Positions 1-12,595 of a stretch of DNA of 12,595 nt are shown here, one piece after another. The DNA comes from a virus (taxonomy: Duplodnaviria > Heunggongvirae > Uroviricota > Caudoviricetes): IMG/VR virus record IMGVR_UViG_2690316345_000019; one strand, written 5' to 3'. The stretch's first letter is position 1. Every line of letters begins with the position of its first letter. The notes under the pieces were generated by a model that ran no database searches, was not told the origin of the DNA, and saw nothing but the letters and a program-made list of their open reading frames with translations. The translations under genes were made by a program, and so were the position numbers.

Positions 1-241
1 TCAATAGGCCGCACGGTTGTTTGGTGGCGTCAAAATTGCCGAGGCGTTCCCTGAAGGCCGGGGCAGCCCACATGGATGTGGGCTGAGGGCGCGTTTTACA
101 GGGATGTTACCTCGCGCCCGACCCGGTAGCCGTAAGGGATAAGCCGAGGGCACCGCGCAGCGGCGATTTTGTTCGCCAGAGCCCGGGGGTGCAGGGGGCG
201 GCGGCGATTGGCCGCCCCCTGCGCGCTCCTTGCGCCAGTGA
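1..241. other. GC-rich non-coding stretch (about 67% G+C) with several strong hairpins; identity unknown
   Basis: Counted 161 G/C in the first 240 nt. Stops in all three forward frames (TGA 52-54, TAG 127-129, TAA 140-142, TGA 82-84). Hairpins at 64-85 (gcccac/gtgggc stem), 88-119 (gggcgcg/cgcgccc) and 191-222 (12-bp G/C stem, 8-nt loop). No U-run follows any of them. Confidence 0.5.
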
Positions 242-255
242 TTGGTTTGGGAGAA
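230..255. repeat. Left recombination site of the invertible segment (gix/hix-like 12+2+12 layout; core TT at 242-243, inner half-site GGTTTGGGAGAA)
   Basis: 242-264 (ttggtttgggagaagcggcaaaa) is the exact reverse complement of 1795-1817. The inner half-site resembles the gix/hix half-sites as I recall them. The outer half (230-241, ttgcgccagtga) is only weakly palindromic. Confidence 0.6.
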
Positions 256-588
256 GCGGCAAAAATGTCTGCCGCTGCACTTGTCATTAACGGTAATACG
301 TTGACAGCAAAAATCCCGGTAGTTATTAACGGCGTTAACAGGGAGTTTATTATTCAGGCATCTCAGATATCCAGCTCTGCAAGCAATGGTGTTATTACCT
401 TCCCATCCGCATTTCCAAATGCGTGTATTGCGATTTTTGCGCATGACTTTGCGACAGCGTCTACGGATTTATCGAATGTTCGGTTCTATATGCCAGGAAG
501 AACATCAGCATCATGGACAGGGCAAAATATGAGTACAGGCAGTGAATCATCACCTGCAACATGGTGTTGGCTGGCAATTGGCTGGTAA
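244..588 (+). CDS. Tail-fibre C-terminal variable-domain cassette (Mu Sv-like); probably a non-expressed remnant because no constant N-terminal region lies upstream
   Basis: The frame is open through the crossover site and encodes the junction peptide GLGEAAK, identical to the junction peptide of the opposite cassette. Internal ATG at 265. Upstream in the same frame there are stops at 127-129 and 133-135 and no tail-fibre-like coding sequence. Confidence 0.6.
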   Translation, partial: GLGEAAKMSAAALVINGNTLTAKIPVVINGVNREFIIQASQISSSASNGVITFPSAFPNACIAIFAHDFATASTDLSNVRFYMPGRTSASWTGQNMSTGSESSPATWCWLAIGW

Positions 589-1008
589 ATGGAGAAAACA
601 ATGAAATATTTTACATCTGCTCCGATTGCTCTTTATAACTCCGATATATCCTCTTATATACCCGGTGACGCAGTAGAAATCAGTGATGAAGTATATGACG
701 CACTTATTGCTGGTCAGGAGGCAGGAAAGAATATTACGACAGACAGTAACGGACTGCCTGTACTGGCAGAACCCGCACAACCAACTCATGATGAATTGGT
801 TGCAGCATCTGAATTAATGAAACAGCATCTGATTGATGCTGCTATGGCTTCCATCAGTCTGATTCAGCTGAAATTGCAGGCCGGACGTAAACTGACGCAG
901 GCAGAAACAACCCGCCTTAACGCTGTGCTGGATTACATTGACGCGGTGACGGCAACAGATACCAGCACCGCGCCGGATGTCATCTGGCCTGAACTGCCGG
1001 AGGCGTAG
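589..1008 (+). CDS. Tail fibre assembly protein (Tfa / Mu U-like chaperone)
   Basis: C-terminal DTSTAPDVIWP motif characteristic of the Tfa family. ATG 589 overlaps the upstream stop (TAAATG). An alternative ATG at 601 has a better-spaced GGAG. Confidence 0.85.
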   Translation: MEKTMKYFTSAPIALYNSDISSYIPGDAVEISDEVYDALIAGQEAGKNITTDSNGLPVLAEPAQPTHDELVAASELMKQHLIDAAMASISLIQLKLQAGRKLTQAETTRLNAVLDYIDAVTATDTSTAPDVIWPELPEA

Positions 1009-1432
1009 GCCATTCAATATCTGGCGCACTGGAAGTATCGACCAGTTCCAGTGCGTCCAGATAATCCAGCCACAAATTATATTGCGCCAGTTCCTCACCT
1101 TTCAGACGACCAATAGCCGCTTTACCTGGCCATTGTTTACTGTTCATATAATCGTTGGCCTGATTAATTAGTAGCTGTCTTTCTGATTCAGTGATTTCAA
1201 TAAGTTCTTCATGCGTGGGGGCAGGAATATCTGCCCACGCAGGCAGCCCATCATCTCCGGCAATACGGATTTTTCCTTGTGGCGGCTCAGCCATAAATTC
1301 ACTGATAATATTTTGATTTACTTCCTTTGCGTCTGATAAATCCCATCCCTCTGATTTATATTTATCAATCATATCCACAGGGAAAAAAGCATTATGCCTT
1401 GCGCTATAAACATATTCGTTCATATAAATCAC
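980..1432 (-). CDS. Alternative tail fibre assembly protein (Mu U'-like)
   Basis: C-terminal VDTSSAPDIEWP Tfa motif. Convergent with 589-1008 and overlapping it by 29 bp. The ORF-track start is GTG at 1432; ATG at 1421-1423 (MNEYVY...) is the more likely start. Confidence 0.85.
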   Translation of the reverse strand: MIYMNEYVYSARHNAFFPVDMIDKYKSEGWDLSDAKEVNQNIISEFMAEPPQGKIRIAGDDGLPAWADIPAPTHEELIEITESERQLLINQANDYMNSKQWPGKAAIGRLKGEELAQYNLWLDYLDALELVDTSSAPDIEWPTPPAVQAR

Positions 1433-1443
1433 CCTGAATAAAA

Positions 1444-1857
1444 TTACTCACCAACAGCCCACCAACTGTAATTCATCGATACTGTGGAGCTGGTTGATGC
1501 AGTTCTGTAAGCGGAATTAAAACCGGTTAGTGTTGGACCTTCTGCAGTCATCACGAATCCCCGTCCAGCGCCTAAAGGCGCACCACCATCACCAGAATGG
1601 GTAAGCATGGCGCAGTCCACTTTTTTAGGAAAAGGGATGCTGAATGTAATTCTCATTGTTTGCGTCGATAATGTCGGCGTAATCGCACCACGACCATATT
1701 GCAGGATTTTCCCGTTGGGTAATTTCATCCATCCATCACCACTGGCAAAAGAGGTCATGTCCGGTATCTGATTTTCCCCTGTCCCCACATCCCGTTTTGC
1801 CGCTTCTCCCAAACCAACGTTTAAGAAAATGCAGCGATTACGACTAACTGGCATCAT
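1444..1857 (-). CDS. Alternative tail-fibre C-terminal variable-domain cassette (Mu Sv'-like)
   Basis: Reads through the right crossover site with the same GLGEAAK junction peptide. The first ~14 codons (1818-1857) lie outside the invertible segment and are unlikely to be an authentic N-terminus. Confidence 0.6.
   Translation of the reverse strand: MMPVSRNRCIFLNVGLGEAAKRDVGTGENQIPDMTSFASGDGWMKLPNGKILQYGRGAITPTLSTQTMRITFSIPFPKKVDCAMLTHSGDGGAPLGAGRGFVMTAEGPTLTGFNSAYRTASTSSTVSMNYSWWAVGE
1804..1829. repeat. Right recombination site of the invertible segment (gix/hix-like; core AA at 1816-1817 on the + strand)
   Basis: Read on the minus strand it is TTTTCTTAAACG-TT-GGTTTGGGAGAA, an imperfect palindrome with 8 of 12 half-site matches. 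Its inner arm is part of the 23-bp inverted repeat 1795-1817. Confidence 0.7.
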
Positions 1858-1884
1858 CCCCGATTTTTATTCAAGGAGATGATC

Positions 1885-2451
1885 ATGCTTATTGGCTATG
1901 TACGCGTGTCAACAAATGACCAGAACACCGATTTGCAACGTAGTGCGCTGAACTGCGCGGGATGTGAGCGGATTTTTGAGGATAAAATCAGCGGCACTAA
2001 GTCCGACAGACCGGGGCTGAAAAAACTGCTCAGGACACTATCGGCAGGAGACACGCTGGTTGTCTGGAAGCTGGACAGGTTGGGGCGCAGTATGCGGCAT
2101 CTTGTTACGCTGATAGAAGAGTTACGCCAGCGTGGTGTGAATTTCAGAAGCCTGACTGACAGTATTGATACCAGTACCCCAATGGGCCGTTTCTTTTTTC
2201 ATGTCATGGGTGCCCTGGCTGAAATGGAACGCGAACTGATAGTTGAACGTACCAGGGCAGGGCTGGCTGCAGCTCGTGCCAAAGGCAGAGTAGGTGGACG
2301 CCGTCCTAAGTTGACCACCGAACAGTGGGCACAGATTGGGCGTTTACTCGAGGCCGGAGAATCAAGACAGCGTATTGCACTGATTTTTGATGTGGGTGTT
2401 TCTACCATTTATCGAAAATTTCCGGCAAATAAGAGCAATGAATCTCCCTGA
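1885..2451 (+). CDS. Serine DNA invertase of the Gin/Hin/Cin/Pin family
   Basis: N-terminus MLIGYVRVSTNDQNTDLQR with the catalytic Ser at residue 9 counted from ATG 1885, and a C-terminal helix-turn-helix (GVSTIYRKF). Very close to Mu Gin as I recall it. RBS AAGGAG at 1873-1878. The ORF track's longer start at 1879 has no spacing to the RBS. Confidence 0.93.
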   Translation: MLIGYVRVSTNDQNTDLQRSALNCAGCERIFEDKISGTKSDRPGLKKLLRTLSAGDTLVVWKLDRLGRSMRHLVTLIEELRQRGVNFRSLTDSIDTSTPMGRFFFHVMGALAEMERELIVERTRAGLAAARAKGRVGGRRPKLTTEQWAQIGRLLEAGESRQRIALIFDVGVSTIYRKFPANKSNESP

Positions 2452-2499
2452 ATCAGCTTTATTTTGATTATCCCTGAAAGCAGATAAATACCGTCATTT

Positions 2500-2517
2500 T
2501 GTGTGAATAACGGTACA
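2500..2517 (+). promoter_or_regulatory. TGT-N12-ACA dyad, the Ogr/Delta activator binding motif of a P2-type late promoter driving the tail operon
   Basis: TGT at 2500-2502, 12-nt spacer, ACA at 2515-2517. The dyad is centred about 85 nt upstream of the FI start codon, compatible with the reported -55 position plus a ~30-nt leader. Confidence 0.5.
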
Positions 2518-2593
2518 ACTGCGCTTAGCTGTTTGTCAGGCACAATCACTTCAACATAGGGCGAAGCCTAATCCAATCAGGAGGTTCGCCACT

Positions 2594-3766
2594 ATGGCTC
2601 AGGATTACCACCACGGGGTGCGCGTTGTTGAAGTCAACGAAGGCACCCGATCCATTACCACGGTGAGCACCGCCATCGTGGGTATGGTCTGCACGGGCGA
2701 TGATGCCGATGCAAAAATGTTTCCTCTTAATAAACCCGTGCTGATCACTGATGTGCTGACTGCCAGCGGTAAAGCGGGTGAGTCCGGTACGCTGGCTCGT
2801 TCGCTGGACGCCATCGCTGACCAGGCAAAACCCGTGACCGTTGTTGTGCGTGTGCCGCAGGGTGAAACGGAAGAAGAAACCACGACCAATATCATCGGAG
2901 CAGTGACCGCTGAAGGTAAAAAAACAGGCATGAAAGCCCTGTTATCTGCCCAGTCACAGCTCGGCGTTAAACCGCGCATTCTCGGCGTGCCAGGTCACGA
3001 CACGAAGGCGGTAGCTACTGAGTTGCTGAGCGTGGCGCAAAGCCTGCGTGGGTTTGCTTACCTGTCAGCGTATGGTTGCAAGACGGTGCAGGAAGCAATC
3101 ACTTACCGTGAAAACTTCAGTCAGCGTGAAGGAATGCTGATCTGGCCCGACTTTACTGGCTGGGACACGGTGCTGAATGCCGAAGCAACGGCTTATGCCA
3201 CCGCCCGTGCGCTCGGTCTGCGCGCCAAAATTGACGAGCAGACCGGATGGCACAAAAGCCTGTCCAACGTGGGCGTGAACGGTGTCACCGGAATTTCTGC
3301 TGATGTGTTCTGGGATCTGCAGGACCCGGCAACCGATGCAGGCCTGCTGAACCAGAACGACGTCACCACGCTTGTGCGCAAGGATGGTTTCCGCTTCTGG
3401 GGTTCCCGCTGTCTGAGCGATGATCCGCTTTTTGCTTTCGAAAACTACACCCGCACGGCGCAGGTGCTGACGGACACAATGGCAGAAGCGCACATGTGGG
3501 CGGTGGACAAACCGCTGACCCCGTCGCTGGCGCGCGACATTATCGAGGGTATCCGCGCCAAAATGCGCAGCCTGGTCAGTCAGGGGTATCTCATTGGTGG
3601 TGATTGCTGGCTGGACGAGTCGGTGAACGACAAAGACACCCTGAAAGCCGGAAAACTCACCATCGATTACGACTACACGCCAGTGCCGCCACTTGAAAAC
3701 CTGATGCTGCGTCAGCGCATCACCGATCAGTACCTGGTGAATTTCTCCAGCCAGGTCAGCGCGTAA
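2594..3766 (+). CDS. FI: Contractile tail sheath protein (P2 FI family)
   Basis: 390 aa, similar in size to P2 FI (about 396 aa). It is the first gene of the conserved order FI-FII-E-T-U-D. RBS AGGAGG at 2579-2584. Confidence 0.9.
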
Positions 3767-3775
3767 GGGGACAAC

Positions 3776-4291
3776 ATGGCTTTACCACGCAAATTAAAAC
3801 ACCTGAACCTGTTTAATGACGGGAACAACTGGCAGGGGATCGTTGAGTCGCTGACGCTGCCGAAATTCACCCGCAAATATGAGAAGTATCGCGGCGGCGG
3901 AATGCCGGGTGCAGTGGATGTGGATCTGGGGCTTGATGACAGTGCGCTGGACACAGAATTTTCCATTGGTGGTACTGAACTGCTGCTGTTTAAACAGATG
4001 GGCAAAGCTACGGTGGATGGCATCCAGCTGCGCTTTACCGGCTCTATCCAGCGTGACGATACCGGGGAAGTGCAGGCTGTGGAGCTTGTGGTGCGTGGAC
4101 GTCACAAAGAAGTGGATTCCGGCGAGTGGAAGACGGGCGAAAGCAACACCACCAAAGTGACCAGTACCAACAGCTACGCGAAGCTGACTATAAATGGTGA
4201 GGTGCTCTATGAAGTGGACCTTATCAACATGGTGGAAATTGTGGACGGTGTGGACCTGATGGAAGCGCACCGCAACGCCCTCGGCCTCTGA
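3776..4291 (+). CDS. FII: Tail tube protein (P2 FII family)
   Basis: 171 aa (P2 FII is about 172 aa). It lies 9 bp after the sheath gene; RBS AAGGGGA upstream. Confidence 0.9.
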   Translation: MALPRKLKHLNLFNDGNNWQGIVESLTLPKFTRKYEKYRGGGMPGAVDVDLGLDDSALDTEFSIGGTELLLFKQMGKATVDGIQLRFTGSIQRDDTGEVQAVELVVRGRHKEVDSGEWKTGESNTTKVTSTNSYAKLTINGEVLYEVDLINMVEIVDGVDLMEAHRNALGL

Positions 4292-4345
4292 TATATCTGA
4301 ACGGCGCGGGATACCGCGCCAGAACCCAATTTACAGGACAGCAAA

Positions 4346-4648
4346 ATGAGCGATAAGCAGACTGAAAAGACCATTCAACTGGATACCCCCATCAAGCGCG
4401 GTAAAACAGAAATCACCGAAATTGTGCTGCGTAAACCGCAGTCCGGTGCCCTGCGCGGTACACGCCTGCAGGCCATTATGGATATGGATGTAAACGCGAT
4501 GATGACCGTGATCCCCCGCATCTCCAGTCCGGCACTGACTGCACAGGAAATTGCAGAGATGGACCCGGCAGATCTCACTGCCATGTCGGTTGAGGTTGTC
4601 ACTTTTTTGTTGAAGAAGTCGGTGCTTGCCGGTTTACCGACAGCCTGA
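4346..4648 (+). CDS. E: Tail assembly chaperone E (P2 gpE family)
   Basis: 100-aa ORF between the tube and tape-measure genes. Contains the slippery heptamer T_TTT_TTG at 4603-4609 near its 3' end. Confidence 0.8.
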   Translation: MSDKQTEKTIQLDTPIKRGKTEITEIVLRKPQSGALRGTRLQAIMDMDVNAMMTVIPRISSPALTAQEIAEMDPADLTAMSVEVVTFLLKKSVLAGLPTA

Positions 4649-4785
4649 CGGTTGACGATCTGGTGGCAGATATTGCCACCATTTTTCACTGGCCGCCATC
4701 CGTTACTGACGTTATGCCGCTGACCGAAGTGCTGGAATGGCGGTATAAAGCGATTCAGAGAAGCGGGGCCAACGATGAGTTATAA
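4346..4785 (+). CDS. Tail assembly chaperone E+E', predicted product of a programmed -1 ribosomal frameshift at 4603-4609
   Basis: After a -1 slip on TTTTTTG the new frame stays open from 4609 to the TAA at 4783-4785, overlapping the tape-measure start at 4775. This mirrors the P2 E/E' and lambda G/GT arrangement. Confidence 0.6.
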
Positions 4786-7700
4786 TAACCTGCGCCTGCA
4801 GGTCATTCTTAATGCGGTTGACAAACTCACCCGCCCATTCCGTGCTGCACAGGCCAGTTCGAAAGAGCTGGCTGGCGCAATCAGAAACTCCCGTGACGCA
4901 TTAAAGCAACTCAATCAGGCGGGTAACAGCCTGGAAAAATTTCGCAAGCTGCAGGCAGATAACAAGAAGTTAGGCGACAGGCTGAACTATGCCAGACAGA
5001 AGGCAAATTTGCTTAGTTCTGAGCTGGAAGCGATGGAACAACCATCACAACGGCACCTTGTGGCTTTAGGTCGGCAAACGCTGGCAGTCCAACGCCTGGA
5101 AGAACAACAAAAATATTTGCAGAAGCAAACGGCGCTTGTGCGTGCAGAACTGTACCGGGCGGGAATTTCTGCGAAAGATGATGCGGGAGCAACTGCCCGT
5201 TTAGCCCGTGAAACATCACGTTATAACCAGGAACTTTCGAAACAGGAGGCGCGGCTGAAGCGACTGGGGGAAGCTCAGCGCAGGATGAATGCGGCGCGTG
5301 CCAGTTATGCCCGTTCACTGGAGGTGCGTGATCGTATTGCAGGCGCCGGAGCCACCACCACGGCTGCAGGGCTGGCAATGGGCGCACCAGTGATGGCGGC
5401 AGTAAAAAGCTATACCAGCATGGAAGATGCCATGAAAGGTGTGGCAAAGCAGGTCAATGGTCTGCGTGACGATAATGGCAACCGCACTGCACGTTTTTAT
5501 GAAATGCAGGATGCCATCAAGGCTGCCAGCGAACAGTTGCCGATGGAAAACGGTGCGGTTGACTTCGCTGCACTGGTTGAAGGTGGTGCGCGCATGAACG
5601 TCGCAAACCCTGACGACAGCTGGGAAGACCAGAAACGTGACCTGCTGGCCTTCGCCAGTACGGCGGCAAAGGCAGCAACAGCCTTTGAGCTGCCAGCGGA
5701 TGAACTGTCAGAAAGTCTGGGGAAAATCGCCCAGCTCTACAAAATACCTACCCGCAATATTGAACAGCTCGGTGATGCGCTGAACTATCTGGATGATAAC
5801 GCCATGTCGAAAGGGGCGGACATCATCGATGTGATGCAACGTCTGGGCGGTGTGGCTGACCGTCTGGATTATCGTAAAGCGGCGGCACTGGGTTCCACCT
5901 TTCTGACACTGGGCGCTGCGCCGGAGGTTGCAGCCAGTGCAGCAAACGCGATGGTGCGTGAATTGTCCATTGCCACCATGCAAAGCAAGAGTTTCTTTGA
6001 AGGGATGAATCTGCTGAAACTCAATCCTGAAGTGATTGAAAAGCAGATGACGAAGGATGCGATGGGAACTATCCAGCGTGTGCTGGAGAAGGTGAACGCA
6101 CTGCCGCAGGACAAGCGTTTGTCTGCCATGACCATGTTGTTTGGTAAAGAGTTTGGCGATGACGCGGCGAAACTGGCAAACAACCTGCCGGAACTACAGC
6201 GCCAGCTAAAACTGACTGCGGGCAATGATGCGCTCGGTTCCATGCAGAAAGAATCCGACATCAACAAAGACTCACTTTCTGCGCAGTGGTTGCTGGTCAA
6301 AACCGGAGCGCAGAACACCTTCAGCAGCCTGGGCGAAACGCTGCGCCAGCCGCTGATGGATATTCTGTACACGGTGAAAAGCATTACGGGGGCGTTGCGC
6401 CGCTGGGTGGAAGCTAACCCGGAACTGACAGGCACACTGATGAAAGTAGCGGCTGTTGTGGCTGCGGTTACCGTAGGCCTCGGCACCTTAGCGGTGGCGC
6501 TGGCTGCAGTGCTGGGGCCGCTGGCAGTGATCCGTCTGGGATTCTCTGTGCTGGGCATCAAAACGTTACCTTCCGTTACGGCAGCAGTAACTCGAACCAG
6601 CAGCGCGTTGTCCTGGCTGGCTGGCGCACCACTGGCACTGCTGCGACGCGGGCTTGCTTCATCGGGCAACGCCGCAGGTTTACTTACTGCTCCGTTGTCG
6701 TCTTTGCGCCGCACGGCATCACTGACGGGAAATGTCCTGAAAACGGTAGCAGGTGCGCCGGTTGCACTGTTGCGGTCTGGATTATCCGGTTTACGTGCGG
6801 TTGCTGTGATGTTTATGAATCCACTGGCAGCACTACGCGGCGGGCTGGCTGCCGCAGGCACGGTGCTGCGAGTACTGGCATCCGGTCCGCTGGCGATGTT
6901 GCGCGTTGCCCTGTATGCCGTATCTGGTCTGTTAGGTGCACTGCTTAGTCCGATAGGTCTTGTGGTTACTGCACTGGCGGGTGTGGCACTGGTTGTCTGG
7001 AAATACTGGCAACCCATCACCGCATTTCTCGGTGGCGTGGTGGAAGGATTCAACGCGGCGGCAGGTCCCATCAGTGCAGCGTTCGAACCGCTTAAGCCTG
7101 TGTTCCAGTGGATTGGCGACAAAGTGCAGGCGTTGTGGGGTTGGTTTACTGATCTGCTGACGCCCGTTAAGTCGACCTCTGCCGAACTGCAGAGCGCAGC
7201 GGCAATGGGGCGACGATTCGGGGAGGCACTGGCGGAAGGGCTGAATATGGTTATGCATCCGCTGGACTCCCTGAAATCTGGCGTTTCCTGGTTGCTGGAT
7301 AAACTCGGCATTGTCAGTAAAGAGGCTGCAAAGGCGAAACTGCCGGAAAGCGTGACGCGTCAACAACCTGCGACGGTGAATGCAGACGGTAAAGTGATGA
7401 TGCCATCGGGTGGTTTTCCGTCATGGGGATATGGCTTTGCGGGGATGTATGACAGCGGCGGCTATATCCCGCGTGGGCAGTTTGGCATCGTCGGTGAAAA
7501 CGGGCCGGAAATTGTTAACGGCCCGGCAAATGTGACCAGCCGGAGAAATACAGCTGCACTGGCTGCCGTTGTTGCCGGAATGATGGGCGTTGCTGCCGCG
7601 CCAGCAGAGCTTCCACCGTTGCATCCTTTGGCGCTTCCCGCGAAAGGCGGTGAAGCGATGGTGAGTCGCGCAGCTGCTGTGCCGCCCGTTCAACGGATTG

Positions 7701-7852
7701 AGGCACCGACGCAGATCATCATTCAGACGCAGCCAGGACAAAGTGCGCAGGATATTGCGCGGGAGGTGGCCCGCCAGCTTGATGAACGTGAACGCAGGCT
7801 GAAGGCAAAAGCCAGGAGTAACTACAGCGATCAGGGGGGATACGACGCATGA
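4775..7852 (+). CDS. T: Tail tape measure protein (P2 gpT family)
   Basis: 1025 aa. N-terminal coiled-coil-like region, Ala/Gly/Leu-rich central hydrophobic repeats, and a C-terminal region typical of P2-like tape measure proteins. Positioned directly after E/E'. Confidence 0.9.
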   Translation: MSYNNLRLQVILNAVDKLTRPFRAAQASSKELAGAIRNSRDALKQLNQAGNSLEKFRKLQADNKKLGDRLNYARQKANLLSSELEAMEQPSQRHLVALGRQTLAVQRLEEQQKYLQKQTALVRAELYRAGISAKDDAGATARLARETSRYNQELSKQEARLKRLGEAQRRMNAARASYARSLEVRDRIAGAGATTTAAGLAMGAPVMAAVKSYTSMEDAMKGVAKQVNGLRDDNGNRTARFYEMQDAIKAASEQLPMENGAVDFAALVEGGARMNVANPDDSWEDQKRDLLAFASTAAKAATAFELPADELSESLGKIAQLYKIPTRNIEQLGDALNYLDDNAMSKGADIIDVMQRLGGVADRLDYRKAAALGSTFLTLGAAPEVAASAANAMVRELSIATMQSKSFFEGMNLLKLNPEVIEKQMTKDAMGTIQRVLEKVNALPQDKRLSAMTMLFGKEFGDDAAKLANNLPELQRQLKLTAGNDALGSMQKESDINKDSLSAQWLLVKTGAQNTFSSLGETLRQPLMDILYTVKSITGALRRWVEANPELTGTLMKVAAVVAAVTVGLGTLAVALAAVLGPLAVIRLGFSVLGIKTLPSVTAAVTRTSSALSWLAGAPLALLRRGLASSGNAAGLLTAPLSSLRRTASLTGNVLKTVAGAPVALLRSGLSGLRAVAVMFMNPLAALRGGLAAAGTVLRVLASGPLAMLRVALYAVSGLLGALLSPIGLVVTALAGVALVVWKYWQPITAFLGGVVEGFNAAAGPISAAFEPLKPVFQWIGDKVQALWGWFTDLLTPVKSTSAELQSAAAMGRRFGEALAEGLNMVMHPLDSLKSGVSWLLDKLGIVSKEAAKAKLPESVTRQQPATVNADGKVMMPSGGFPSWGYGFAGMYDSGGYIPRGQFGIVGENGPEIVNGPANVTSRRNTAALAAVVAGMMGVAAAPAELPPLHPLALPAKGGEAMVSRAAAVPPVQRIEAPTQIIIQTQPGQSAQDIAREVARQLDERERRLKAKARSNYSDQGGYDA

Positions 7853-8334
7853 TGATGGTGCTGGGATTGTACGTGTTTATGCTGCGCACCGTGCCGTATC
7901 AGGAGCTGCAGTATCAGCGCAGCTGGCGACATGCGGCTAACAGCCGGGTTAACCGACGCCCGTCAACGCAGTTTCTGGGACCGGACAATGACATGCTGAC
8001 GCTTTCTGGTGTTCTTATGCCGGAGATAACAGGCGGCAGGCTGTCGTTGCTGGCACTGGAGCAGATGGCAGAACAGGGGAAAGCATGGCCTCTGATTGAA
8101 GGCAGCGGCACGATTTACGGCATGTATGTGATTGAGGGACTGAATCAGACTAAAACGGAGTTTTTCCGCGACGGTATGCCGCGCCGGATTGAGTTCACCT
8201 TGTCGCTCAAACGGGTGGATGAATCCCTGTCCGATATGTTCGGTGATCTCAGTACGCAACTGAATAATCTGCAGGACACGGCAACATCTGCCTTAAGTGA
8301 TATCAGTAAAACGGTGGGAGGGCTGCTGTCGTGA
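7849..8334 (+). CDS. U: Tail protein U (P2 gpU family)
   Basis: 161 aa (P2 U is about 159 aa). Its start overlaps the T stop (ATGA). Confidence 0.85.
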   Translation: MMMVLGLYVFMLRTVPYQELQYQRSWRHAANSRVNRRPSTQFLGPDNDMLTLSGVLMPEITGGRLSLLALEQMAEQGKAWPLIEGSGTIYGMYVIEGLNQTKTEFFRDGMPRRIEFTLSLKRVDESLSDMFGDLSTQLNNLQDTATSALSDISKTVGGLLS

Positions 8335-9431
8335 ATTTCAGCTCTGAACTGCTTAACAAAGGCAACAAAACTCCCGCATTCAGCATCAGTATTGAGGGCA
8401 GGGATATCACTACTGTCCTGGATAAGCGCCTGATGAGTCTGACGCTGACGGACAACCGGGGCTTTGAAGCAGACCAGCTTGATCTGGAGCTGGACGACGC
8501 CGACGGAAAAATCGTGCTGCCTCGCCGTGGTGCGGTCATTACGTTGGCGCTGGGCTGGAAGGGGCAGCCGCTTTTCCCGAAAGGGGCATTCACGGTGGAC
8601 GAGATTGAACACACTGGCGCACCGGACCGCCTGACTATCCGGGCGCGAAGTGCTGATTTTAGGGAAACGCTGAATACCCGCCGCGAAAAATCGTGGCACA
8701 AGACCACTGTCGGGGAAGTGGTGAAGGAAATAGCCGCACGTCACAAGCTGAAGATGGCACTGGGTAAAGACCTGTCGGATAAGCCCGTGGAGCATATAGA
8801 CCAGACTAATGAGAGTGACGGTAGTTTTCTGATGCGGCTGGCGCGCCAGTACGGTGCTATTGCGTCGGTGAAAAATGGCAATCTGTTATTCATCCGGCAG
8901 GGACAGGGTAAAAGTGCCAGCGGTAAACCACTGCCGGTGATCACTATCACACGTAAGGACGGCGACAGTCACCGCTTTACCCTGGCAGATCGCGGAGCTT
9001 ACACGGGCGTAATTGCCAGCTGGTTGCATACCCGCGAACCCACGAAGAAAGAAAGCACTACAGTGAAGCGTAAGCGCAGGACTAAGGCCCAGAAGAAAGA
9101 GCCGGAAGCGAAGCAGGGCGATTACCTAGTGGGTACGGATGAAAACGTGCTGGTACTTAATCGCACTTATGCCAACCGGAGCAACGCCGAACGAGCGGCG
9201 AAAATGCAGTGGGAACGCCTGCAACGCGGTGTTGCGTCATTCTCACTACAACTGGCAGAAGGGCGGGCGGATCTCTACACGGAAATGCCAGTGAAAGTCA
9301 GTGGCTTTAAACAGCCGATAGATGATGCGGAATGGACCATTACGACTCTGACGCATACCGTCAGCTCGGATAACGGTTTTACGACCAGTCTGGAGCTTGA
9401 AGTGAGGATTGATGATTTCGAAATGGAATGA
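8331..9431 (+). CDS. D: Tail protein D (P2 gpD, late control gene D family)
   Basis: 366 aa. GTG start overlaps the U stop (GTGA). Its position before ogr matches P2 synteny. Confidence 0.85.
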   Translation: MNFSSELLNKGNKTPAFSISIEGRDITTVLDKRLMSLTLTDNRGFEADQLDLELDDADGKIVLPRRGAVITLALGWKGQPLFPKGAFTVDEIEHTGAPDRLTIRARSADFRETLNTRREKSWHKTTVGEVVKEIAARHKLKMALGKDLSDKPVEHIDQTNESDGSFLMRLARQYGAIASVKNGNLLFIRQGQGKSASGKPLPVITITRKDGDSHRFTLADRGAYTGVIASWLHTREPTKKESTTVKRKRRTKAQKKEPEAKQGDYLVGTDENVLVLNRTYANRSNAERAAKMQWERLQRGVASFSLQLAEGRADLYTEMPVKVSGFKQPIDDAEWTITTLTHTVSSDNGFTTSLELEVRIDDFEME

Positions 9432-9521
9432 TTCTTCGCAATGGAGAACTTTTAAGTTTGCAAAATAGAATAATGCGGTATCATTATTGTGAATTTAGCA
9501 AAAATGGGGAGAACTCGAAAA

Positions 9522-9740
9522 ATGATGATTTGCCCACTGTGTGGAAGTGCCGCCCATACTCGCAGCAGTTTTCAGGTATCTTCATTGACCAAAGAGCGTT
9601 ACAACCAGTGCCAGAACATTAACTGCAGCCATACTTTTGTTACCCATGAAACTTTTGTTCGTTCGATTGCAACGCCAAAAGAGTCAAATCCGGTTCAGCC
9701 GCATCCAATGAAATCAGGACAGGTGGCGCTCTCTCTTTGA
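9522..9740 (+). CDS. ogr: Ogr/Delta-family zinc-finger late transcription activator
   Basis: MMICPLCGSAAHTRSS...YNQCQNINCSHTF has the four-Cys C-x2-C...C-x4-C motif and resembles P2 Ogr as I recall it. RBS GGGGAGA at 9507-9513. The ORF track's GTG at 9489 would add an unlikely N-terminal extension. Confidence 0.85.
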   Translation: MMICPLCGSAAHTRSSFQVSSLTKERYNQCQNINCSHTFVTHETFVRSIATPKESNPVQPHPMKSGQVALSL

Positions 9741-9816
9741 CGCTGCCGCCATTTTGTCGCCATCGTTAAAAAACAGTGTTTCTAACATCATGATTTTAAA
9801 CAGCTTAAATTTCAGG

Positions 9817-9863
9817 CAACAAAAAACCCATCAACCTTGAACCGAAATGGCGGGGTTGATGGG
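9817..9863 (-). terminator. Rho-independent terminator on the minus strand (stem cccatcaacc/ggttgatggg followed by UUUUUUGUUG); it terminates ybjL transcription and may coincide with the prophage attachment core
   Basis: 10-bp perfect stem at 9827-9836 and 9854-9863, with a long loop that can extend the stem by further pairing. A6 run at 9821-9826 on the + strand gives a U6 run on the minus-strand transcript. Confidence 0.5.
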
Positions 9864-9975
9864 CTCCACAAAATGGGGACATCAAAGAAAAGCAGTGGCA
9901 CTAATTAAGACTGATGCCCTGCGGAAAAGTTCTGCGGTTGTGCAAAAAAATTTCATTTTCAGGGCAACTTCAGTT

Positions 9976-11661
9976 TTATCCTAATCCTGGCCATACCATG
10001 ACGATGATTGTCCCTGCCAGCGTCAGCAGGACGTTGGCGATTGCATAGGTGCCCGCATAGCCCAGCGCCGGGATGTTACTGCGAGCTGTATCACTGATGA
10101 TCTCCATTGCCGGCGCGCAGGTACGTGCGCCCATCATTGCGCCGAACAACAGCGCGCGGTTCATTCGCAATACATAAGCACCGAACAAGAAACAGATAAC
10201 CACGGGCACCAGACTGACAATCAATCCGGCAATCAACATCTGACCGCCAATCGCGCCCAGACCGTTATTAATACCGCTACCGGCGCTCAGACCAACGCCT
10301 GCCATAAACACCATCAAGCCGAACTCTTTCACCATGCTTAATGCACCCTGCGGAATGTAACCGAAGGTCGGGTGGTTAGCACGCATAAAGCCCAGCATAA
10401 TTCCGGCGAATAACAACCCGGCAGCGTTCCCCATGCCGAAACTGAATGTGCTGAACTGGAAGGTGATCATCCCGATCATCAGCCCAATAACAAAGAAGGC
10501 GCAAAATGCCAGCAGGTCAGTGACCTGGCTGTGAATCGAGATAAAGCCGATGCGATCGGCGATGGTTTTTACGCGACGGGCATCACCGCTGACTTGTAAA
10601 ACGTCACCTTTGTTAAGCACGACGTTGTCATCTATCGGCATCTCAATCTGGCTACGAATGACGCGGTTAAGGAAGCAACCGTGATCGGTCAACTTCAGTT
10701 GTGCGAGACGTTTACCTACAGCGTTATGGTTTTTAACGACCACTTCTTCAGTGACGATACGCATGTCGAGAAGGTCACGATCGAAAACTTCTTTACCGTT
10801 ACGGAAGCTGGGATCGAGTCGGGCATGGGCGTCGGGATAGCCTACCAACGCTATTTCATCGCCCATTTGTAGCACGGCATCACCGTCTGGATTTGCCAGA
10901 ATCCCGTTACGTCGAATACGTTCAATGTAGCAGCCGGTTTGTCGATAAATACCCAGTTCACGCAGATTTTTGCCGTCGGTCCAGGCCACCAGCTCCGGGC
11001 CGACGCGATAGGCGCGGATCACCGGTAAATAAACCTTACGGTTGGCATCAGTGTCCAGGCCACGTTCGCGGGCGATTTGCTGGGCGCTGGTCTGTAAGTC
11101 CTGATGCTGCAATTTCGGCAAGTAACGCGCACCAACAATCAAACTCACCAGACCGATTAAATAGGTTAAGGCATACCCGAGGCTCAGATTATCCAGTGCC
11201 AGTGAGAGCTGCCTGCTTTCCATGCCGGAATGACGCAGTGTATCGCCAGCACCGACCAGAACCGGTGTCGACGTCATAGAGCCTGCTAACATACCGGCCG
11301 TCAGGCCAATATCCCAGCCAAACAGCTTACCTAACCCTAAGGCGATCACCAGCGCACTGCCAACCATCACCAGTGCTAACATTAGGTAATTTTTCCCATC
11401 GCGAAAAAAAATGGAAAAAAAGTTCGGTCCGGCTTCAACCCCAACACAGAAAATAAACAGCATAAAGCCAAGATTAAGCGCATCGGTGTTAATGCTGAAA
11501 TGTTGTTGGCCTAATAACAGCGATACGACTAAAACGCCAATGGAATTACCCAGTTGGATCGAACCAAGTCGTAACTTTCCGAGACATAGCCCAAGCGCGA
11601 GGACCACAAATAATAACAGAATGTAATTCCCATTTAACAATTCGGCGACGTTTATATTCAC
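9976..11661 (-). CDS. ybjL: Putative transport protein YbjL (AAE-family transporter with two TrkA-C/RCK-C domains)
   Basis: 561-aa product beginning [17 protein letters not shown], matching E. coli YbjL as I recall it. GTG start. It sits next to ybjM and grxA as in E. coli K-12. Confidence 0.92.
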
Positions 11662-11930
11662 GGAGGCTAACTTCTTGTTTACTAGTAAGCTGTTGAAAGA
11701 AATGGTAATTTACGATAATGTTTTTTACCAGAATTCAGGGCGCAGATTCATTCAGCGCACCTAAACGATAGTAAAGTAACAATATATTTTACTAGTGTAA
11801 TCACATTAGGTATCAACGGCTATATGAATTGCGTTGGCCTATATTAGCATGGAATGCGAAGCGGCTTTATCTTACTGAACGCCACACTGGCGAAAAATGT
11901 GTTCGATAGACGCAGTGTCAGGAGGAACGA

Positions 11931-12308
11931 GTGAAACATAAACAACGTTGGGCGGGGGCAATCTGCTGTTTTGTCCTCTTCATTGTGGTGTGCCTTTTTC
12001 TGGCGACGCACATGAAAGGCGCTTTTCGGGCTGCCGGGCATCCTGAAATCGGCTTGCTATTTTTCATTCTTCCTGGAGCAGTCGCCAGCTTCTTTTCACA
12101 GCGTAGAGAAGTCCTGAAACCTCTGTTTGGCGCAATGCTGGCGGCACCCTGTTCGATGCTCATTATGCGGCTGTTTTTTTCACCGACGCGCTCATTCTGG
12201 CAAGAGCTGGCATGGTTATTAAGTGCGGTGTTCTGGTGTGCGCTGGGGGCACTGTGTTTCTTATTTATCAGTAGTTTGTTTAAACCACAGCACAGAAAAA
12301 ATCAGTAA
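11931..12308 (+). CDS. ybjM: Inner membrane protein YbjM
   Basis: 125-aa hydrophobic protein beginning MKHKQRWAGAICCFVLF. GTG start preceded by AGGAGG at 11920-11925. Divergent from ybjL. Confidence 0.88.
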   Translation: MKHKQRWAGAICCFVLFIVVCLFLATHMKGAFRAAGHPEIGLLFFILPGAVASFFSQRREVLKPLFGAMLAAPCSMLIMRLFFSPTRSFWQELAWLLSAVFWCALGALCFLFISSLFKPQHRKNQ

Positions 12309-12328
12309 AGCCCTCAACGCGAGGGCTT
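12308..12328. terminator. Hairpin between convergent ybjM and grxA; most plausibly the grxA terminator
   Basis: 8-bp stem 12308-12315 / 12321-12328 with a 5-nt loop. On the minus strand it is followed by UACUGAUUUUUU. No U-run follows on the + strand. Confidence 0.45.
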
Positions 12329-12337
12329 GTCAGACGA

Positions 12338-12595
12338 TCAGGCGTCCAGATTTTCTTTCACCCATGCAGCAAAATCGGTATAGCCGCCGATATGTTGCTG
12401 ATCGACAAAAATCTGCGGCACGGTTTCTACGGGTTTACCTGCCTTTTGTTGTAGATCTTCTTTAGTGATCCCTTCCGCACGAATATCTACATAGTGATAC
12501 TGAAAATCATCGTGTTCATTGCTCAATTTCTCAGCCAGATCTTTTGCACGCACACAGTAAGGGCAACCCGGACGACCAAAAATAACGGTTTGCAT
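12338..12595 (-). CDS. grxA: Glutaredoxin 1
   Basis: 85 aa with the CPYC active site (MQTVIFGRPGCPYCVRAK...). Its start codon is the last three bases of the window. Confidence 0.93.
   Translation of the reverse strand: MQTVIFGRPGCPYCVRAKDLAEKLSNEHDDFQYHYVDIRAEGITKEDLQQKAGKPVETVPQIFVDQQHIGGYTDFAAWVKENLDA

Follow-up and report, generated by a model that had tools for sequence, protein, structure and literature searches.

A tail-fibre inversion switch joined at its crossover core to distant Escherichia coli chromosomal DNA: a possible invertase-mediated 1.34-Mb inversion

The viral record IMGVR_UViG_2690316345_000019 (Caudoviricetes), whose 12,595 nucleotides are referred to here as the window, carries an invertible tail-fibre segment (positions 244-1829) made up of two receptor-binding cassettes, two Tfa genes and their crossover sites, followed by a Gin/Cin-family DNA invertase gene, the right half of a P2-like prophage and host chromosome. 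The switch itself is of an already known type. What is new is the DNA upstream of it, which comes from the intergenic region between dusC and yohP in the E. coli core chromosome (positions 1-243) and is joined to the switch at the two-base-pair crossover core. The change in origin is accompanied by a drop in GC content, from 66% over 1-243 to 45.5% over 244-1829.

A perfect inverted repeat of 23 nt delimits the switch, with its left arm at 242-264 (+) and its right arm, 100% complementary to the left, at 1795-1817 (-). By our own estimate, a perfect 23-bp inverted repeat has a chance expectation of about 5e-8 in 2.6 kb. The left arm encodes GLGEAAK, and both flanking open reading frames (ORFs) read this peptide through the repeat. 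Cassette A, a tail-fibre C-terminal (receptor-binding) module at 265-588 (+), matches the Pfam family Gp53-like_C (E 4.5e-11). Its ORF spans 169-588 (+), with a translation that contains VIGLGEAAKMSAAAL, and from position 244 onward its frame is that of the crossover, the upstream constant region being absent; the crossover inner half-site, GGTTTNNGAGAA, is followed by the cassette. Cassette B, the alternative C-terminal module on the opposite strand (1444-1857, -; Gp53-like_C, E 6.8e-13), has a translation that contains NVGLGEAAKRDVG, and its ORF starts outside the segment, within the spacer on the invertase side. The Tfa gene cognate to cassette A lies at 601-1008 (+; Caudo_TAP, E 6.7e-23) and is called as a 135-aa gene in the matching draft scaffold (L016, described below), while the one cognate to cassette B lies at 980-1432 (-; Caudo_TAP, E 1.5e-30). 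Cassettes and Tfa genes are arranged convergently, as alternative C-termini with their own assembly proteins.

The invertase gene (1885-2451, +) encodes a full-length protein of 188 aa with Resolvase and HTH_7 domains (Pfam E = 2.6e-53 and E = 1.4e-15, respectively). The protein aligns over residues 1-184 with the Mu Gin structures (PDB 3uj3/4m6f; E = 4e-92) and is 78.6% identical to P1 Cin. The catalytic Ser9 is present, within MLIGYVRVS, and Met114 is the wild-type residue. A putative recombinational (Fis) enhancer occupies the 5' end of the gene (1903-1974, +), as judged from homology to P1: nucleotides 19-90 of the invertase gene are identical at 55 of 72 positions (76%) to the annotated "enhancer of Cin-mediated C-segment inversion" of P1 (cin nucleotides 19-90), and a single loose Fis-like 15-mer was found there. 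The collection has 1429 blocks with exactly the same invertase protein; of ten places listed, nine are P2-like prophages with a tail-fibre segment, in the gene order I-H-tfa-tfa'-cassette'-invertase-FI.

The two crossover sites differ sharply in quality. We built a position weight matrix from natural crossover half-sites and used it to score both. The right site (1804-1829, +) is intact and reads TTCTCCCAAACC AA CGTTTAAGAAAA, with half-sites at +16.1 and +12.2 bits; this sequence recurs in at least 11 related loci and fits the consensus form tabulated in PMC4134206, where the anatomy of such sites is described. The left site (230-255, +) is a hybrid. Its core, TT at 242-243, is followed by a cognate inner half, GGTTTGGGAGAA at 244-255, which scores +16.1 bits, and is preceded by a non-cognate outer half, TTGCGCCAGTGA at 230-241, which scores -10.7 bits, against +12 to +16 for natural halves. 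The intact relatives have TTCTCGCATACC TT GGTTTGGGAGAA/G at this position.

The upstream DNA, positions 1-243, matches the reverse strand of E. coli MG1655 from 2,229,396 to 2,229,154 with 100% identity, in the orientation opposite to that of the window's right end, where 9806-12595 corresponds to MG1655 887,964-890,753 on the forward strand. Some 40 nt separate the window start from the end of dusC, which lies upstream. The same 243 nt are present in almost all of the 5426 complete E. coli genomes, and there the sequence continues through GTGATT into ATATGAAGCAATGC toward yohP. A search of this upstream DNA for a tail-fibre constant region found none: all of 1-243 is conserved intergenic DNA and not a decayed tail fibre, and the cassette frame is closed upstream by stops at 52-54, 127-129 and 133-135. 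Rfam gave no family in 1-243, and BLAST across about 0.5 Mb of the E. coli loci examined gave no match to another copy of the region. We also rejected the idea that the dusC-yohP spacer houses a second prophage or a known att site, as in K-12 and ER1709 it is plain intergenic DNA without an annotated repeat. The conserved spacer includes a perfect 12-bp hairpin made only of G and C at 191-222 (GCAGGGGGCGGC ... GCCGCCCCCTGC, with an 8-nt loop) that is not followed by a run of T; it could be a structure at the 3' end of dusC, and it could also lower short-read coverage.

The position of the join can be read directly from an alignment of three sequences. The chromosome has GCGCCAGTGA TT ATATGAAG (over a further extent, GCGCCAGTGA TT ATATGAAGC), the intact phage has CTCGCATACC TT GGTTTGGGAG, and the window has GCGCCAGTGA TT GGTTTGGGAG. 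The TT is in register in chromosome, intact phage and junction, and the phage sequence stops exactly at the core (242-243); because the three align on the shared TT, the point of exchange is the 2-bp core. The junction-spanning sequence is ...CCAGTGATTGGTTTGGG..., and the 40-mer from dusC into cassette A, J1, is CTCCTTGCGCCAGTGATTGGTTTGGGAGAAGC. The corresponding intact wild-type junctions read ...CCAGTGATTATATGAAGC... and ...CGCATACCTTGGTTTGGG... (WT1, CTCCTTGCGCCAGTGATTATATGAAGCAATGC; WT2, ...CTCGCATACCTTGGTTTGGGAGAAGC). Serine invertases make a staggered cut at the core, and religation needs matching overhangs (PMC3798978); both parents here have the same non-palindromic core, in the alignment that religation would need. 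The 26-bp chromosomal partner as a whole is TTGCGCCAGTGATTATATGAAGCAAT, that is, TTGCGCCAGTGA TT ATATGAAGCAAT.

The two flanks lie on opposite strands of MG1655 and 1.34 Mb apart, and since the strands are opposite, the rearrangement that would connect them is an inversion and not a deletion. A single inversion between the prophage crossover site (at about 0.888 Mb) and 2.229 Mb gives the observed junction exactly, and the inverted orientation of the parental sites predicts inversion, which is the product of this class of invertase. The inverted interval would contain dif (MG1655 1,590,750), with arms of about 703 and 638 kb. With arms so nearly equal, the balance of the replichores would barely be disturbed, as expected of an inversion that is tolerated. 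Colinear host DNA extends in the scaffold for about 228 kb to the left of the junction and about 109 kb to its right.

Comparison with related prophages shows what the locus would have looked like before such an event. Identity between the window and MG1655 starts again at window position 9806 (887,964), which places the prophage at the 3' end of rybB. Closely related complete prophages occupy this rybB/ybjL site in many E. coli genomes, the attachment locus is filled in hundreds, and at least 80% of the window is covered in 637 of the 5426 complete genomes. The closest relative (L003) is 99.7% identical across 1795-12451, and its H protein has a 350-aa constant part ending in ...AGLLAYL followed by GLGEAAK; such a constant region is found in the relatives where the window has dusC-yohP DNA. 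Another intact relative at rybB/ybjL (L001) has the same cassette A fused to H, and in NZ_CP106924 the segment is oriented as in the window, with cassette A forming the C-terminus of a complete H gene. In three further loci (L013, L015 and L017) the same segment is flipped, with breakpoints exactly at 242 and 1817. Contigs of related draft assemblies are interrupted at the right repeat, those of L027, L028 and L029 beginning at about 1691, 1795 and 1819, respectively, as expected if the segment flips in culture. Together, the opposite orientations and the contig breaks indicate that this switch family is probably active, insofar as sequence comparison can tell, and the switch itself is an ordinary one: a routine member of the Gin/Cin/Pin family in a P2-like prophage at rybB, beside ybjL. 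A preliminary description of the window had called the switch structurally intact on the strength of its perfect 23-bp repeat, two cassettes reading GLGEAAK, two Tfa genes and an invertase with its catalytic serine, and we find all of these features in place. It had also reported that no tail-fibre constant region lies upstream and that phage sequence ends at the core beside a degenerate outer half-site, both of which hold, given the three in-frame stops in dusC-yohP DNA and the score of the outer half-site.

We infer that these observations reflect an inversion catalyzed by the invertase. In the ancestor, H would have read from its 350-aa constant part (ending ...AGLLAYL) over the left crossover site and on through cassette A, an arrangement that the relatives have kept. 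Either the invertase of the prophage itself or a related enzyme working in trans would then have recombined the left site with the dusC-yohP sequence 1.34 Mb away, the two recombining sequences having only the central TT in common. As the "sites" stood in inverted orientation, the terminus-containing segment of 1.34 Mb would have been inverted. One of the two new junctions would be the one seen in the window, with the dusC side followed by TT and cassette A. The reciprocal junction is predicted to join int...I and the H constant region to the yohP side, with the sequence ...CGCATACCTTATATGAAGCAATGC...; in this junction, J2, the end of the H constant region, ...GGTCTTCTCGCATACCTT, would be followed by ATATGAAGCAATGCACATGAC. 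The reading frame would continue ...gca tac ctt ata tga, so that H would be truncated to 351 aa (...AYL-I-stop). The prophage would thereby have been split into halves 1.34 Mb apart and disabled, capable neither of excision nor of building tail fibres. The orphan block would keep the switch, both cassettes, both Tfa genes, the invertase and the genes from FI to ogr. Flipping of the segment could continue at lower efficiency, since the hybrid left site retains its core and one good half-site, with no change of tail fibre and no phenotypic output. Retention of the invertase for some other role, as the preliminary description had considered, need not be invoked if the gene simply remained with the right half of the split prophage.

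We lean, by a small measure, toward a real inversion mediated by an invertase between the left crossover site of the phage and a non-cognate chromosomal site, and several points weigh against it. The junction occurs in a single draft scaffold only, CYCA01000001.1 of GCA_001285045.1 (336,945 bp; L016). Over 10,588 nt, this scaffold differs from the window at one position, an N (L016 position 9977) in place of the window's A at 241, beside the core. Scaffolders such as SSPACE typically mark the join of two abutting contigs with a single N. The A in the window, which equals the wild-type chromosomal base, may be a substitution for this N, and the adjacency at the junction may rest on read pairs and not on contiguous read-through. 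Megablast of the 5426 complete E. coli genomes found no other copy of the junction, scans for its exact pattern in JGI metagenomes and in GTDB representatives gave no match, and look-ups and a homology search with the three junction-spanning ORFs gave nothing beyond GCA_001285045.1. The predicted reciprocal junction was not found by homology search with the 351-aa truncated H, with two exact variants, in the "partial H" cluster or by pattern scans, a result that is uninformative since the collections do not include the source assembly. The chromosomal partner, scored with the same matrix against 9974 TT-core positions, falls at the 52nd percentile and is no better than a random TT; the idea that it is a recognisable pseudo-site was rejected on this ground. 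Lastly, with wild-type Met114, the invertase presumably depends on the enhancer and Fis, to judge from its sequence, and enhancer/Fis-dependent invertases are normally restricted to nearby sites in cis (PMC3798978).

The explanation that competes most directly with an inversion is a scaffolding artefact, which we regard as unlikely but serious: the genome would be colinear with K-12 and the prophage intact, and a contig ending in the GC-rich dusC-yohP spacer would have been misjoined to an invertible-segment contig starting at 242. The N at 241 in the scaffold stands exactly at the join, there is only one source record, and the chromosomal partner does not resemble a site. Short-read contigs of the relatives break at the switch repeats (L027, L028 and L029), so a contig start at 242 needs no special event; indeed, a contig starting there is expected wherever the segment flips, and thus the core position of the junction does not by itself discriminate between the two explanations. 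The 12-bp GC hairpin at 191-222 could plausibly have caused a dip in Illumina coverage close by. Such a misjoin, however, needs a contig to end in unique intergenic DNA and then to be given a wrong partner over its true neighbour a few bases away, which amounts to several independent mishaps, and scaffolders join contigs only on multiple concordant read pairs. The wild-type chromosome continues A-TT, so the TT of the segment contig fits if exactly one base is unknown (a chance of 1/16); the orientation is that expected of the invertase (a chance of 1/2); the arms of the implied inversion lie nearly symmetrically about dif; and the right repeat is crossed in the scaffold without any N. A different account accepts the junction as real and supposes that the segment, or cassette A, is also present in another copy by dusC (for example a segment or a second prophage fragment brought there by invertase-mediated fusion), the scaffold threading a collapsed repeat so that the 1.34-Mb inversion is only apparent. 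Multiple copies within one genome are plausible, given that an identical 107-aa cassette A occurs in several unrelated prophage types (L014, L018-L022), and the contigs of the relatives do break at the repeats; a preprint on ST131 (10.1101/2022.05.07.487787) describes prophage tail-fibre inversions together with a translocation in a third prophage, with homologous tail-fibre genes common to the three prophages. We judge this improbable all the same, as cassette B of the segment is unique to the GCA_001285045.1 assembly and the scaffold runs unambiguously from 242 through both cassettes into the invertase gene. It would not be simpler either, since recombination at the same core with the same non-cognate sequence would still be required.

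Two further explanations concern how a real rearrangement arose. An illegitimate or microhomology-mediated inversion that ended by chance at the crossover site would account for the junctional identity of just 2 bp (TT) and for a chromosomal partner unlike a recombination site. It would also need a breakpoint on the sole dinucleotide that the resident recombinase cuts in a prophage of about 30 kb, for which we estimate a chance of about 1e-4, with the core and inner half-site perfectly preserved and the orientation as strand exchange requires, and we therefore hold it to be very improbable. The preliminary description had proposed an invertase-mediated deletion, with loss of the constant tail-fibre gene and everything to its left up to the site. 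Its choice of culprit still stands, the invertase being the obvious one, and the phage sequence does stop exactly at the core, but deletion is contradicted by the flanks and has to give way to inversion: deletion keeps orientation, whereas this flank comes from 1.34 Mb away and from the strand opposite to that of the ybjL side. Moreover, the loss would have comprised about 1.3 Mb including the terminus, or else the remaining chromosome including oriC, and we give a deletion almost no credence. A bolder form of the invertase-mediated inversion, in which a wild-type tail-fibre invertase made a fixed, replichore-balanced inversion of 1.34 Mb in a natural E. coli isolate through a partner sharing TT only, and in which the inversion may stay reversible and so switch the architecture of the host chromosome instead of the host range of the phage, is speculative, and we think it doubtful. 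Reversal is conceivable because both new junctions would keep the core and one good half-site, and the single ambiguous base at the junction could reflect a mixed population.

The rest of the window is what would be expected of the right half of a P2-like prophage (2594-9740, +), with genes for the sheath FI, the tube FII, E/E', the tape measure T (4775-7852), U, D and ogr, to which we assigned Pfam labels from the identical genes in L016 and L026. The tail block runs FI-FII-E/E'-T-U-D, followed by ogr and attR, and this half is 95-97% identical to P2-like phages such as Escherichia phage 500465-1. The genome is not a complete one, as the int, regulatory, replication, head and baseplate genes, that is, all those left of the crossover site, are absent from the locus. 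Upstream of the tape measure gene, ORFs of 100 aa (4346-4648) and 40 aa (4663-4785) match the E / E+E' pair of P2 (Phage_TAC_7 and Phage_P2_GpE), the usual tail-chaperone arrangement with a programmed frameshift. The attR boundary and an intact gene for the RybB small RNA follow at 9806-9896 (-; RybB at 9818-9896, Rfam RF00110, 105 bits), and beyond them (9976-12595) are the host genes ybjL (-), ybjM (+) and grxA (-), in the K-12 orientation.

Several observations on the cassettes and their neighbours stand apart from the question of the junction. Apart from GCA_001285045.1, the exact 136-aa product of cassette B (1444-1854, -) was found in just one 857-bp metagenome contig of ENA (ERZ27318534), so that the window almost certainly derives from the former assembly; this cassette is, as far as sequence matches go, probably a rare receptor-binding variant. 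The identical 107-aa product of cassette A is found in L014 and L018-L022 (at about 10001-10324 in each), beside invertases in unrelated prophage types, namely Mu-like prophages with Mup48/gp45-47 baseplate genes and other myovirus-like ones, at other chromosomal loci. Because an identical cassette occurs in unrelated prophage types, receptor-binding cassettes appear to be exchanged between phage families. Common to the crossover sites of these prophages are the inner half GGTTTGGGAGAA/G and the TT core, features that would permit an invertase to act in trans. The Tfa gene at 601-1008 has GGAG 8 nt before its ATG, and dusC is on the same strand as cassette A and this Tfa gene; read-through from dusC could thus be predicted to express the orphan Tfa chaperone, and possibly a C-terminal fragment of the tail fibre. 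One other locus with the same invertase (L010; GCA_000458495.1, KE700470.1) has H cut to 354 aa, a 2-kb stretch with no called genes, and a sheath gene that stops at 252 aa, after which the terminase and portal genes come in inverted order. The locus looks rearranged internally and may represent a second rearrangement at or near such a switch, or an assembly problem.

If the inversion is real, it would be a natural instance in which an invertase of the Gin/Cin family recombined at an unrelated secondary site and rearranged one third of the chromosome of E. coli, something known so far mainly from selected laboratory constructs. Invertases carried by prophages would then be a source of large host inversions whose repeat signature is just 2 bp, such events could ground a prophage permanently by splitting it, and annotated "orphan" tail-fibre switches could mark the places where they had occurred. 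The junctions of invertible segments are a known weak spot of short-read scaffolds, and this case shows how biology may be separated from mis-joins there.

Among known systems, the closest in anatomy are the Gin/Cin/Pin/Hin switches (the Mu G, P1 C, e14 P, p15B Min and Shigella boydii B segments), with which the window shares an invertase about 78% identical to Cin, 26-bp sites with a 2-bp core, two convergent cassettes each with a Tfa gene, and, judging from homology, enhancer-like DNA in the 5' end of the invertase gene. It differs from them in that unrelated chromosomal DNA makes up the outer half of its left site and in having no constant tail-fibre gene, so that the switch is without output. 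The P2-like (Peduoviridae) prophages with invertible H/G regions, such as Escherichia phage 500465-1 and those at rybB/ybjL in L003 and L013, have the same tail gene order at 95-99.7% identity, and those at rybB/ybjL have the same integration site and an identical invertase protein, whereas the window locus has only the half from the crossover site to attR, the half from int to the H constant region being predicted 1.34 Mb away. The Fels-2 type, with the Fin invertase, is another P2-like prophage with an invertible H/G region.

The nearest mechanistic counterpart is recombination by Cin at quasi-sites (cixQ). Rozsa et al. 1995 (J Bacteriol 177:1159) reportedly obtained chromosomal inversions by Cin, 109 and 210 kb in length, at secondary cixQ sites with little homology, and are said to have concluded that homology to cix is not strictly required. 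PMC4134206 cites Iida & Hiestand-Nauer 1987 on the part that the central dinucleotide plays when Cin chooses quasi-sites. In the cixQ events, as in the one proposed here, a true site recombines with a poorly related sequence that shares the central dinucleotide, giving a chromosomal inversion with hybrid sites. The cixQ events, however, arose under laboratory selection with Cin provided in trans and spanned 2-210 kb, whereas the event proposed here would be spontaneous and fixed in a natural isolate, at about 1.34 Mb (some 6x larger), and its chromosomal partner has no detectable half-site similarity. We also considered PMC4272514 and the ST131 preprint as precedents and set them aside, since the inversions described there proceed via ribosomal RNA (rRNA) operons or large inverted repeats and not via an invertase. 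The large replichore-symmetric inversions of E. coli and Shigella, which arise by homologous recombination at insertion sequence elements, rRNA operons or prophages, resemble the proposed inversion in their megabase scale and their approximate symmetry about the terminus; the difference is that the breakpoint repeats here are 2 bp at most, and one of the breakpoints is the cleavage point of a recombinase.

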